NCBI GenBank assembly: GCA_963720375.1
Contig: CAVRFM010000015.1
Location: forward strand, 106,999 to 170,998
Reading direction: 5' to 3'
Origin: an uncultured Chloroflexia bacterium
GTDB lineage: Bacteria; Chloroflexota; Dehalococcoidia; UBA2247; RBG-13-53-26
Length of the DNA: 64,000 nucleotides
The first letter of the stretch is position 1. Every line of letters begins with the position of its first letter. Below are positions 37,251 through 39,800 of the stretch, piece after piece. The translations under genes were made by a program, and so were the position numbers. The notes beneath the pieces are model-generated. The model was not told where the DNA came from. It ran no database searches and saw nothing but the letters and a program-made list of their open reading frames with translations.

Positions 37251-37396
37251 TTCTAATCATTTTCTAAGCATTCTCTAATCTATTTCCAATGCAAGATGGA
37301 GTTTCGTTCCGTATACTGAGGGTGTATTAGAGAGGATACCCCCCCCGCTCTAAGACAAGAGAAGCCCATCCGAAAAGCTGGGCTTTCTTCTTGTCT
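37251..37396 (+). ncRNA. Putative TCS-regulated sRNA gene, copy 1
   Basis: Four 11-bp-phased boxes, TATACT 37312, C-rich hairpin 37327-37353, terminator to 37396; paralog at 39671. Confidence 0.6.
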
Positions 37397-37623
37397 ATAA
37401 AGCGATCATCCCGGCGGTGACTTGTAGAAATGGAGAATGTGATGGAAGGTCATGCTCCTGGAGTGCTTTCCGCGAGGCCCTTTATATCCAAGCCTCTGCA
37501 CCAATACGGTACATGCCGGGCGTGGCTCATTGCAGGTCGTTTGACCTGGATACTGCCGTGGTCTATCATTGCCCCCAACGGGGCGGAACACAGAATGGAT
37601 GCGCAGTCAGCGTGGAGGATAAC

Positions 37624-38289
37624 ATGCGTATTCTAGTTGTCGACGACGATCCTGAAATAGTGAGCTTCCTCAAACGGGGCCTGACGTACGAGGGCTATAC
37701 CGTCGACACGGCCGGTGACGGTAGAGAGGCGTTAGCCAAAGTCCTGGAGAGAGAACCTGACCTTGTCGTTCTGGATATCATGATGCCTGGCATTGATGGT
37801 ATAGAAGTGAGCAAGCGACTCCGTCAGGCAAGTGAGATCCCCATCTTGATGCTTACCGCGAAGGGCACTGTCACTGACAGGGTGGCCGGGCTCGACAGCG
37901 GTGCGGATGACTACCTGGTCAAGCCTTTTGCCTTTGATGAGCTACTGGCAAGGATAAGGGCTTTGCTCAGGCGCGGCCGGCCCACGGAGGGAGAAGTCCT
38001 TCGGTTCATGGACCTTTCGCTGAGCACTGCCACCAGAGAGGTAAGGCGCGGAAACGATATGATACACCTTACTGCCCAGGAGTTCGAACTGCTCGAGCTT
38101 TTTATGCGCCATCCGCGGCAGGTGCTCAAGAGGGACATGATCTATGAGAAAGTGTGGGGGTATGACTTCGGCGGCGAATCCAATGTCATAGAGGTCTATA
38201 TGCGCTACCTGCGTTCAAAGCTGGAGGCCGGAGGCCAGCCCAGGTTGATTCATACGGTTCGCGGCGTTGGCTACGTTCTAAAGGAATAG
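37624..38289 (+). CDS. OmpR/MprA-family response regulator
   Basis: [43 protein letters not shown]. Confidence 0.95.
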
Positions 38290-38293
38290 TGGC

Positions 38294-39676
38294 ATGTCAA
38301 TTCGCTGGCGATTGACTCTTTGGTTTACCCTCATACTGGGCGTTATCATTCTGTTCTTTGGAGCATTTTTCTTCGTCGCGCTGCAGAACTGGCTTGTTGC
38401 ACAGGTAGACGGCAACCTGAAGGTCTATTCAACACAAGTGCATGCCACAATGCCCTCCGGTGAAAGCACCGGGCCTCTCGATTACGACGTTATCCACTCC
38501 AGTCTGCCTCCCATAAATGAGATCGAGTCTCCAGGGATTTTTGTCCAGATTATAGACAGCAGTGACAATGTGGTGGTGAAATCGGACAACCTTGGCGATC
38601 AGGAGCTGCCGGCTGCCCCGTCGTTGATAGTAGCGGGATTCAGCGGAAGGGAGGATTTTCAGACGGTTTCTTCCGGCAATACCAGGGTCCGTATTATGGT
38701 TTCGCCCTTGTATTTGGAGAACCAGACTCTGGTTCTGGAGGTAGCGCAATCCCTGGCATCCACAGATGCCGCTATTGGACGCGTCGGACTGGCTGTTTTG
38801 ATTAGTATGGGGGTGATTTTGACACTGGCATTGATATCGGGGGCGATTCTGGTCCGCCGGGCGCTTTCTCCCGTAAAACGTATCACCACCACGGCTCAGG
38901 GTATCTCCTCAAGTTCTGATCTCAGCCGCCGGGTTGGCTACCGCGGCCCGGCAGATGAGATCGGACAACTCGCCACTACCTTCGACCACATGATCGAGCG
39001 CCTGGATAAAGCTTTTCAATCTCAGAAGGACTTCGTGGCTGATGCCTCCCATGAGTTGAGAGGTCCACTGACCGTCATTCAGGGCAATCTGGATTTGCTG
39101 AAACGTAATCTCAGCGAGGAAGACCGCCGGGAATCGGTGCGGGCTCTTGAGGCAGAGACAGCGAGGATGACCAAAATAATGAGCAACCTTCTCGTTCTGG
39201 CTGAACTTGAATCAGGTCAGTTGGAACGGCGAGAGATGGTCTCACTGAAGGAGATGCTTCTTGATGCCGGGGAACGGGCGATGCACCTGGCCGGAGACCG
39301 GCGGATTGTGATAGAACGTCAGGAGGACCTGTGGGTAAAGGGAGATGCAGACAGACTGGAGCAGGTTTTGAGGAATCTGGTAGACAATGCCATCAGGTAT
39401 ACTCCGGAGGGAGGCACCATCACCCTGTCGCTGTTTCAGAACGGTGATTGGGCGCTCTTGAGGGTAGCTGATACCGGAATAGGAATATCTCCTGAGCACC
39501 TGCCGCATATCTTCGACCGTTTCTACCGGGCCGACAAGGCCCGCTCCAGAGCGAGCGGGGGGACAGGTCTGGGGCTGGCTATTGTCAAGGGAATTGTGGA
39601 GCAGCACGGAGGAAGGGTTACTGTGACCAGTGAGCCGGGCAAAGGCAGCACATTCACCGTCTGGCTGAAACTCTAA
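38294..39676 (+). CDS. HAMP sensor histidine kinase
   Basis: Two TMs, DASHELRGPL, NLVDNAIRY, DTGIGI, GTGLGL. Confidence 0.95.
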   Translation: MSIRWRLTLWFTLILGVIILFFGAFFFVALQNWLVAQVDGNLKVYSTQVHATMPSGESTGPLDYDVIHSSLPPINEIESPGIFVQIIDSSDNVVVKSDNLGDQELPAAPSLIVAGFSGREDFQTVSSGNTRVRIMVSPLYLENQTLVLEVAQSLASTDAAIGRVGLAVLISMGVILTLALISGAILVRRALSPVKRITTTAQGISSSSDLSRRVGYRGPADEIGQLATTFDHMIERLDKAFQSQKDFVADASHELRGPLTVIQGNLDLLKRNLSEEDRRESVRALEAETARMTKIMSNLLVLAELESGQLERREMVSLKEMLLDAGERAMHLAGDRRIVIERQEDLWVKGDADRLEQVLRNLVDNAIRYTPEGGTITLSLFQNGDWALLRVADTGIGISPEHLPHIFDRFYRADKARSRASGGTGLGLAIVKGIVEQHGGRVTVTSEPGKGSTFTVWLKL

Positions 39677-39800
39677 TCATCTTCTAAGCATTTTCCAATC
39701 CAGTCCTAAGCTTTGCCCGGTATACTGAAGGTGCTCATGAAAGGTTACCCCCCTTTCTAGGCAATAGAAGCCCACCTGCAACAGGTGGGCTTTCTTGTTT
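39671..39800 (+). ncRNA. Putative TCS-regulated sRNA gene, copy 2
   Basis: Four 11-bp-phased boxes, N10, TATACT 39721, hairpin GAAAGG-TTACCCC-CCTTTC, terminator GCCCACCTG-CAA-CAGGTGGGC-TTTCTT. Confidence 0.6.

Follow-up and report, generated by a model that had tools for sequence, protein, structure and literature searches.

The OmrA and OmrB RNAs of enterobacteria are duplicated, are activated by an OmpR-family regulator (EnvZ-OmpR), feed back on the regulator mRNA and depend on Hfq; they carry a single-stranded seed at the 5' end and are encoded in tandem, away from envZ-ompR. The 6C RNA of Actinobacteria holds C-runs in two C-rich hairpin loops, which are thought to pair with G-rich targets; it is a single conserved gene, and to our knowledge no two-component promoter is known for it. 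As a rule, regulators of the OmpR/PhoB family bind direct repeats that recur every 11 bp and stand in for the -35 element. In Streptococcus, CiaR promoters are described in the available part of PMC3091779 as NTTAAG-N5-TTTAAG placed 10 nt from the -10 element, and the CiaR-dependent small RNAs (csRNAs) measure 51-202 nt. As far as the available part of PMC4409812 goes, RoxS is activated by ResDE and, through C-rich regions that base-pair with G-rich Shine-Dalgarno sequences, inhibits formation of the initiation complex. For the class Dehalococcoidia, the only small-RNA candidates that we found reported, first in 2026, are the putative sRNA1-3 of D. mccartyi CBDB1, which came from RNA sequencing, have sigma-70 promoters, include one 6S-like RNA and, by the available part of the report, have no Rfam match (PMC12961961). 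In the present study, we analyzed a 64,000-nt stretch of DNA (the window) from an uncultured bacterium of this class (phylum Chloroflexota; GenBank assembly GCA_963720375.1, contig CAVRFM010000015.1, positions 106,999-170,998), in which two putative small-RNA (sRNA) genes bracket a two-component operon. On comparative sequence evidence, the ~70-nt unit found on both flanks is a real RNA family, and the two-component system most likely switches this family on.

The assembly under study (G000) comprises 2.48 Mb in 28 contigs, with 52.7% G+C, and is 93.5% complete. The features of the locus are as follows, in window coordinates.

37251-37294, plus strand: box array 1, four 11-bp direct repeats TTCTAATCATT/TTCTAAGCATT/CTCTAATCTAT/TTCCAATGCAA, predicted regulator sites, offset-61 register (sequence reading)
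37312-37317, plus strand: -10 element TATACT of sRNA 1, offset 61 from box 1 (sequence reading)
37321-37392, plus strand: predicted sRNA 1 (class A), with a hairpin at 37324-37356, loop AUACCCCCC, and a terminator AGAAGCCCA...UGGGCUUUCUUCUU at 37360-37392 (covariance model R1, 65.9 bits, E 4e-15)
37541-37569, plus strand: the operon's own sigma-70-type promoter, TTGACC-17-TATCAT (consensus scan, 10/12)
37627-38289, plus strand: response regulator of the OmpR/PhoB family, 220 aa (Pfam Response_reg 5e-34, Trans_reg_C 8e-29)
38294-39676, plus strand: sensor histidine kinase, 460 aa, with HAMP, HisKA and HATPase_c domains (Pfam)
39671-39714, plus strand: box array 2, four 11-bp direct repeats CTCTAATCATC/TTCTAAGCATT/TTCCAATCCAG/TCCTAAGCTTT, offset-50 register (sequence reading)
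39721-39726, plus strand: -10 element TATACT of sRNA 2, offset 50 from box 1 (sequence reading)
39730-39799, plus strand: predicted sRNA 2 (class B), with a hairpin GAAAGG-UUACCCC-CCUUUC at 39739-39757 and a terminator at 39767-39799 (R1, 71.6 bits, E 1e-16)

The initial annotation of this DNA had described the same non-coding module on both flanks of the operon, with four boxes per copy at an exact 11-bp period and with the first box 61 versus 50 bp from the -10 element. Direct reading bore this out: the boxes, TATACT, hairpin and terminator of both copies lie at the coordinates above, and the 11-bp indel falls where the annotation had put it. When the two modules were aligned, the mean column identity was 79%, interrupted by a clean 11-bp indel. 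Both RNAs folded better than their dinucleotide shuffles, with z = -3.7 and 0/200 shuffles as good for sRNA 1, and z = -3.3 and 2/200 as good for sRNA 2, whose terminator was also called by the terminator scan. A small peptide encoded in the RNAs was considered and rejected, as no open reading frame (ORF) of at least 50 aa lies on the transcribed strand within 37321-37392 or 39730-39799. Array 1 is kept in the same-genus genome G001. Synteny with G001 starts at 37215, just 5' of array 1, and runs as a 92%-identical block over 37215-40860; inside this block, a 231-bp stretch (40033-40263) is without a counterpart in G001.

The annotation had also called the locus csRNA-like, and this label held as an analogy of design. 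In both systems an OmpR-family regulator activates the RNA genes (a prediction here) at 11-bp direct hexamer repeats (TCTAAK-N5-TCTAAK here), several short, paralogous, terminator-ended RNAs occur per genome, and Shine-Dalgarno complementarity suggests control of translation initiation (PMC3091779, available part). The last hexamer of array 2 lies 10 nt before its -10 element, and CCTAAG-N10-TATACT matches the spacing of ten given for CiaR, as the annotation had pointed out (PMC3091779, available part). The label did not extend to membership, judged by promoter hexamers, RNA architecture and covariance models. The arrays have four boxes rather than two, occur in two registers and read TCTAAK/TCCAAT instead of TTTAAG; copy 2 (TCCAAT-N5-CCTAAG-N10-TATACT) agrees with CiaR promoters in period and spacing, whereas copy 1 is set one helical turn further. 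The C-run lies in a hairpin loop here and in an unpaired linker between two stem-loops in csRNAs, and no anti-AUG element was seen in the window RNAs. In addition, the present RNA genes bracket the regulator-kinase operon, one array lies over the kinase stop codon, and the host belongs to Chloroflexota, not Streptococcus. A CiaR-specific model was absent among the best 25 family matches listed for the regulator.

The other precedents resemble the locus in part. RoxS/RsaE of Bacillus and Staphylococcus (ResDE/SrrAB) shares the two-component-regulated small RNA with a C-rich anti-Shine-Dalgarno sequence (predicted here). RoxS is longer, has four C-rich regions and is a single gene, whereas the present RNAs have one C-run per ~70 nt and many paralogs; the ResD site is short and lies near -65, whereas the four-box array abuts the -10 element; and the RsaE family of Rfam did not match the window RNAs at E<=10. 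With OmrA/OmrB the locus shares duplicated small-RNA genes under an OmpR-family regulator (again predicted), and it differs in its predicted anti-Shine-Dalgarno loop and in genes that adjoin the regulator operon. The 6C family of Rfam likewise gave no match at E<=10 on the window RNAs. The D. mccartyi sRNA1-3 were compared with the present family by description only, and the available part of the report describes no two-component link for them (PMC12961961). A two-component-driven, C-rich anti-Shine-Dalgarno design has clear precedents, and the present locus would extend a known principle to a new phylum.

To define the family, we built R1 from 25 aligned copies; the model has 69 positions and 20 pairs. 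When the seed sequences were aligned with MAFFT and folded with RNAalifold, the many indels of the linker put the stems out of alignment, and the resulting consensus was weak (-3.74 kcal/mol, 10 pairs). The structure of R1 was therefore drawn by hand, and the alignments used to count pairs were fitted to the model. Across 52 homologs, 89.6% of the cells paired and 15/20 pairs changed on both sides (116 cells), a count that leans toward the drawn structure since the rows were fitted to R1, and many of these rows are close kin; both points weigh against the reading given here. The covariation score was reached by 0/500 shuffles, and slid-partner controls paired at no more than 60%. In the metagenome set, which stood outside model building, 10/20 pairs changed on both sides (59 cells), again with 0/500 shuffles reaching the score. 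Compensatory stem variants were also found by eye (GAGAGG/CC.GCUCU, GACAGG/CC.GGUCU, GAGAGG/CCUUUCU and GAAAGG/CCUUUC). Both stems drift, but the loop (A/U)CACCCC, of the CACCCCCC type, and the CC that closes it show almost no variation. The statement of the annotation that the stems differ and keep their pairing therefore holds across the family, and the ~70-nt structured RNA that it proposed is matched by R1, with covariation, at 37321-37392 and 39730-39799.

The distribution of the family was examined in relatives of G000. When 60 relatives were searched at the DNA level, six further genomes of the same family (f1) were found to carry promoter and RNA together at full length. Among the 22 f1 genomes examined, R1 matched 18 at E<=0.01, and the best match reached E<=1e-5 in 15; at E<=1e-5 none was found in an out-group sample of 147 genomes of the same class. 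A genome holds up to 14 matches at E<=0.01, the weakest of which are likely terminators. A third member in G000 (contig C6, 24270-24343) lies directly after the stop codon of another gene for a SHOCT protein. Metagenome loci (n=80) were retrieved by a 17-nt core motif and then scored with R1, which confirmed 33 copies in 31 of them; the remaining ~49 loci are therefore taken as chance matches to the motif. As far as sampled, the family appears confined to one family of uncultured Dehalococcoidia. The annotation had regarded it as undescribed, which agreed with our searches: Rfam 15 gave nothing at gathering score over the whole window, and at E<=10 it gave five chance matches in window 36500-40500 (miRNA, lncRNA and snoRNA families, eukaryotic or archaeal), none on either RNA. 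Our literature searches found no described equivalent in Dehalococcoidia or Chloroflexota.

A multi-copy unit of this kind could also be a non-functional repeat or a miniature mobile element with a chance terminator, and two of the box modules, on contig C3, come directly after another repeat of ~100 nt. Such an element is hard to reconcile with the compensatory changes that keep both helices, with a distance from boxes to -10 element that is fixed in all but two of 33 modules, and with a position at the kinase 3' end that is conserved across genera. Moreover, only one strand scores with R1, the reverse-strand matches being weak terminators (23-27 bits), and no terminal inverted repeats or target duplications were seen in the loci read. 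We give this explanation almost no credence.

We then considered the boxes as a promoter element. A single box is not enriched in the window (9 matches with at most two mismatches versus 15.2 expected). Significance lies with the phased array: the strict two-box pattern, which matches boxes 1 and 2 (TCTMAYCNNNYTCTAAG), occurs 7 times in G000 and 33 times in the 22 f1 genomes, versus one match for the reversed control pattern. TAnnnT follows at a fixed offset in 31/33 of these modules, and the type of the fourth box goes with the register: in 14 modules the offset is exactly 50 and the fourth box reads CyTAAGC, and in 17 the offset is 60-61 and the fourth box reads yTCCAATsCA. A sigma-70 consensus scan found no -35 element at either window copy and called no full promoter at copy 1; therefore, the promoter of sRNA 1 looks activator-dependent. 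The direct repeats recur about once per helical turn, replace the -35 element and keep a fixed distance to the -10 element, as in class II-like promoters of OmpR/PhoB regulators. On this pattern, the array is probably a promoter element, one array type being used in two helical registers. An R1-type RNA lies 3' of 21/33 modules, and the other 12 precede leaders and protein genes.

The association of the boxes with the two-component system was consistent throughout the f1 genomes. Kinase orthologs with at least 59% identity occur in 12/22 genomes (11 full-length and one truncated where its contig ends); exactly these 12 also have the two-box pattern, and none of the 10 genomes without the kinase has it. 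Genus g3 includes both states, with six genomes that have kinase and boxes and two that have neither. In the window, box 1 of array 2 encloses the TAA that ends the kinase gene (39674-39676), and an array likewise overlaps the kinase stop codon in G001, G002, G010, G014, G016 and G018; the overlap spans genera g1, g2 and g3. The same overlap was found at more distant kinase orthologs from other Dehalococcoidia records, L054 (66% identity) and L057 (57%), while at L056 (60%) the array starts ~20 bp past the stop codon; at these three loci the array is followed by a protein gene and not by an RNA. The array is kept at the kinase 3' end while its cargo differs; therefore, it travels with the two-component system. 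Furthermore, the array lies directly 5' of the regulator gene in G019 and G020, and 5' of a small Cys-rich gene preceding the regulator gene in G017 and G021. Copy 1 of the window would thus sit where an autoregulatory box promoter appears to sit in sister genera. We infer from these arrangements that the regulator binds the boxes.

Alternatively, the RNAs may be real and the boxes bound by a different transcription factor, the two-component operon being a mere neighbor or a member of the regulon. Binding is a prediction, the co-occurrence rests on three genera, and the regulator is a generic OmpR/PhoB protein without a diagnostic family assignment. Its best NCBIfam scores were obtained with heavy-metal, NblR and MtrA models, all under cut-off; the nearest, the heavy-metal regulator subfamily, gave 241 bits under a cut-off of 279. 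The nearest solved structure is PrrA of M. tuberculosis (8e-63). Several results speak against a different factor. Direct repeats of 11 bp that replace the -35 element fit OmpR/PhoB regulators, with CiaR as an example (PMC3091779, available part). The array remains at the kinase stop codon, or within about 20 bp past it, at orthologs of 57% to 90% identity while the cargo changes, and the pattern is missing from all ten genomes without the kinase, including the two in g3. We regard binding by a different factor as improbable, and control by the adjoining regulator is preferred.

The nearest NCBIfam model of the kinase is that of heavy-metal sensor kinases, which matched it along its full length with 263 bits versus a cut-off of 292.55. 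With both proteins under the heavy-metal subfamily cut-offs, the Pfam and NCBIfam scans of kinase and regulator gave no signal assignment. In genus g2 (L130, L131 and L132), a gene like that for methionine sulfoxide reductase B (msrB), read from its translated motif, ends just 5' of the operon's own promoter; this neighbor hints faintly at a link to redox or oxidative stress. A second histidine-kinase paralog lies at window 62699-63577 on the minus strand (C15:169697-170575 in G000) and shares 43% identity with the last 290 residues of the operon's kinase. Elsewhere in the window, a 346-aa ORF at 33281-34321 (minus strand) carries a reverse-transcriptase domain (RVT_1, E 1.5e-21); neither a group II intron nor any other family of Rfam reached gathering score across the whole window.

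Copy 1 lies 234 nt 5' of the regulator gene on the same strand, and this position raises another explanation, in which hairpin and terminator form a cis-acting leader or attenuator that governs read-through into the downstream gene: the regulator-kinase operon at copy 1, and elsewhere a Cys-rich gene or the hairpin-led SHOCT gene on contig C6 of G000. Some of the protein cargo of the arrays also favors a leader. Box-array promoters precede the 76-aa Cys-rich protein, a zinc-ribbon mini-protein before an HD-GYP-like gene, SHOCT membrane mini-proteins, an NAD-epimerase-like protein and, in G019 and G020, the regulator operon itself, which the array drives directly. Pfam and NCBIfam gave no match for the 76-aa Cys-rich protein and were uninformative for the others (SHOCT, zinc ribbon, NAD-epimerase-like). 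In G000, a terminator-less hairpin forms the 5' leader of a SHOCT gene (C6:24399, a C-rich hairpin) and of the Cys-rich gene (C3:64968). The Cys-rich orthologs in G000, G001, G011 and G017 have such terminator-less leaders, whereas on contig C196 of G002 the full hairpin plus terminator lies ~20 nt before the ribosome-binding site of the Cys-rich gene. Since leader and terminator-bearing forms occur at orthologous genes, leader and free-RNA forms interconvert.

Other observations are at odds with a leader as the general function. Copy 2 is followed by a convergent gene, as are its orthologs in G002 and G014, which leaves nothing to attenuate. Among 69 distinct terminator-bearing members with enough flank, crude ORF calling found only a convergent ORF within 300 nt in 10, none in 16, only a co-directional one in 25 and an ambiguous context in 18; 9 further members were too short. 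No alternative anti-terminator pairing was evident. In addition, the operon has its own promoter between copy 1 and the regulator gene, and TTGACC-17-TATCAT is kept 5' of the regulator gene in 9/10 orthologous loci (the exception is L133), whatever lies further upstream. The operon retains its own conserved promoter; therefore, copy 1 is a separate unit. We consider a cis leader distinctly unlikely as the account of the family, slightly less so than a different factor at the boxes. The two window loci are instead predicted to be independent genes for small RNAs of ~70 nt, and they combine the marks of trans-acting small RNAs, namely an own promoter, a conserved structure and an intrinsic terminator, each predicted from sequence. 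We infer that the RNAs are made, and that they are discrete.

Several side observations were made on the protein cargo. The Cys-rich protein of ~76 aa (…RWA.ACS…C..C……CQDLADRLIGC…) is encoded at C3:65098-65328 in G000 (L183, 7099-7329) and has orthologs at L151, L160, L161, L166, L135 and L138; its gene always lies behind a box-array promoter, and it is this gene that directly precedes the regulator gene in G017 and G021. In the region C6:23900-25250 of G000 (L182, 3900-5250), three paralogous units follow one another in tandem, and each encodes a small membrane protein whose C-terminus is of the SHOCT type. Two of these units seem split or frameshifted into a membrane peptide of 37-38 aa plus a remnant, and two have box-array promoters. 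The ~100-nt repeat consists of G5/C5 hairpins (...CAACCCCCTGTAGTCCCCCAGTCTTGGGGGAC...GGGGGACACCCCC...) and has 7 copies in G000, at window ~40890-41010 (C15:147898), C3:63708, C3:64898, C12:25064, C15:57558 (minus), C17:24546 (minus) and C23:3642; both C3 copies are immediately 5' of box-array promoters.

The proposed function of the RNAs derives from their C-run. The class B stretch GGUUACCCCCCUUUCUAGG resembles the 16S rRNA 3' tail of G000 itself, GGAUCACCUCCUUUCUAGG, as read from contig C8. Class B RNAs read AGGUCACCCCCCUUUCUAAG, in which the C-run plus UUUCUA is close to a copy of the 16S tail, with CCUCC turned into the C-run; their 5' arm, GAGAGG or GAAAGG, is Shine-Dalgarno-like. Within the first hairpin, the C-run occupies the loop and the 3' arm, and the linker is A/G-rich (AAGAGAAG). 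In G000, 917 ORFs of at least 100 aa have a perfect GG[AG]GG upstream (679 GGAGG, 172 G5 and 64 G6), and many clearly genuine genes start after AAGGGGGGU..., examples being frr-, gvpA- and moaC-like by translation. Leader hairpins with CCUCC-type loops were also found 5' of G-run ribosome-binding sites, and the minimum-energy fold of one such leader, in G001, pairs the loop with the leader's own GGAGGUGAGGGGGGG site. Hfq was not found in G000, at 93.5% completeness. The ratio of GGGGGG-N4-9-ATG to its reversed control was 1.07-1.9 in the 4 genomes without an R1 match, 1.1 in G012, which has a weak match (0.004), and 1.2-3.5 in the other 17; this trend is weak and confounded by kinship, and we do not count it as support. 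By analogy with RoxS/RsaE and the csRNAs, the predicted RNAs probably block the translation of other genes in trans.

The nearly invariant CACCCCCC loop, with stems that drift, could instead be the site of an RNA-binding protein, so that the RNAs would titrate that protein, like the GGA motifs of CsrB, or be guided by it, and would not use the loop as an mRNA seed. The many paralogs per genome and the failure to find Hfq are in keeping with such a sponge. Against it, each RNA has one motif, whereas sponges usually have many; no candidate protein is linked to the loci; and the likeness of class B to the 16S tail reaches past the C-run into UUUCUA, which fits Shine-Dalgarno pairing. The chance of protein titration appears slim, a little below that of a different factor, and pairing with mRNAs is retained as the proposed function.

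Taking Shine-Dalgarno pairing as the function, the proposed mechanism would run as follows. The membrane kinase would sense a periplasmic signal; its architecture is nearest to CusS/CopS-type metal sensors, under the cut-off of that family. The kinase would phosphorylate the OmpR/PhoB-type regulator, and the regulator, probably in the form of two dimers arranged head to tail, would occupy the four direct repeats that recur every 11 bp (YTCTAAKCnnn). The bound array would take the place of the -35 element, with box 1 at 50 or 61 bp from the -10 element, and RNA polymerase would be recruited to the TAnnnT -10 element. The predicted transcript would start ~7 nt past the -10 element directly with the hairpin, whose (A/U)CACCCC loop is closed by GG:CC, and would end at the intrinsic terminator. 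The C-run would pair with G-rich Shine-Dalgarno regions of mRNAs and block ribosome binding, presumably without Hfq. The same array may also drive protein genes; in some relatives, the operon of the regulator would likewise be under its control. We judge this whole chain, from a sensor to ~70-nt RNAs that occlude Shine-Dalgarno sequences, to be reasonably likely.

Several points weigh against the chain. The co-occurrence of boxes and kinase in 12/12 versus 0/10 genomes spans only three genera, which amounts to few independent events, and another co-inherited regulator might produce the same pattern. The CCCCCC run differs from the canonical CCUCC and is partly paired inside the hairpin. G6 ribosome-binding sites occur at 2/5 box-driven protein genes in G000 versus 7% genome-wide, a weak comparison. 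Some protein genes have a homologous hairpin as their 5' leader, whether or not a terminator follows, which makes a cis role possible for some members, copy 1 included. Moreover, family members lie behind two other promoter types. In one (P2), an upstream motif AAGTCACATAC lies ~41 nt before the -10 element, with members in G006, G009, G010, G011 and others; in the other (P3), the promoter is a canonical TTGACA-17-TAATAAT. The RNA is thus not confined to this system, and three genomes have the RNA without the kinase and without boxes. The P2-type motif, read as (A)AGTCACATAC ~41 nt before the -10 element, was seen in related genomes at L023, L109, L019, L044, L043, L119 and L041 and at the metagenome loci L256, L198, L207, L250, L184 and L194. 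An upstream motif that stands without a box array suggests that a second regulator may control the same RNA family. The initial annotation had presented the RNAs as the output of this two-component system, and comparative evidence supports this claim. The co-occurrence, the 3'-end linkage down to 57% identity and the fixed -10 register in 31/33 modules favor it; exclusivity did not stand, with members behind two other promoter types and a system that appears to drive protein genes as well.

A bolder version would see the RNAs as mimics of the 16S 3' tail that switch off one Shine-Dalgarno 'dialect' as a class, with the same hairpin used in cis and in trans and exchanged between these uses in evolution. 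The G6 (~7%) and G5 (~19%) sites among the strong ribosome-binding sites of G000 would form G-U wobble pairs with the ribosome and perfect G-C pairs with the RNA, in which CCUCC has turned into CCCCCC; the two-component system could therefore silence that dialect. We hold this version to be unlikely, though it ranks somewhat above the cis leader.

Dehalococcoidia are abundant in the subsurface and mostly uncultured, and their post-transcriptional regulation is almost unexplored. For these bacteria, the proposed circuit would give a testable chain from sensor kinase to regulator, four-box operator and a small-RNA family with a defined seed. R1 and the promoter pattern can find further members in genomes and metagenomes, and they define a set of protein genes that may be co-regulated. 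With a hairpin that occurs both as a leader and as a predicted free RNA, and an array that is used in two registers, the family may offer a tidy system for the origin of small RNAs from regulated leaders.

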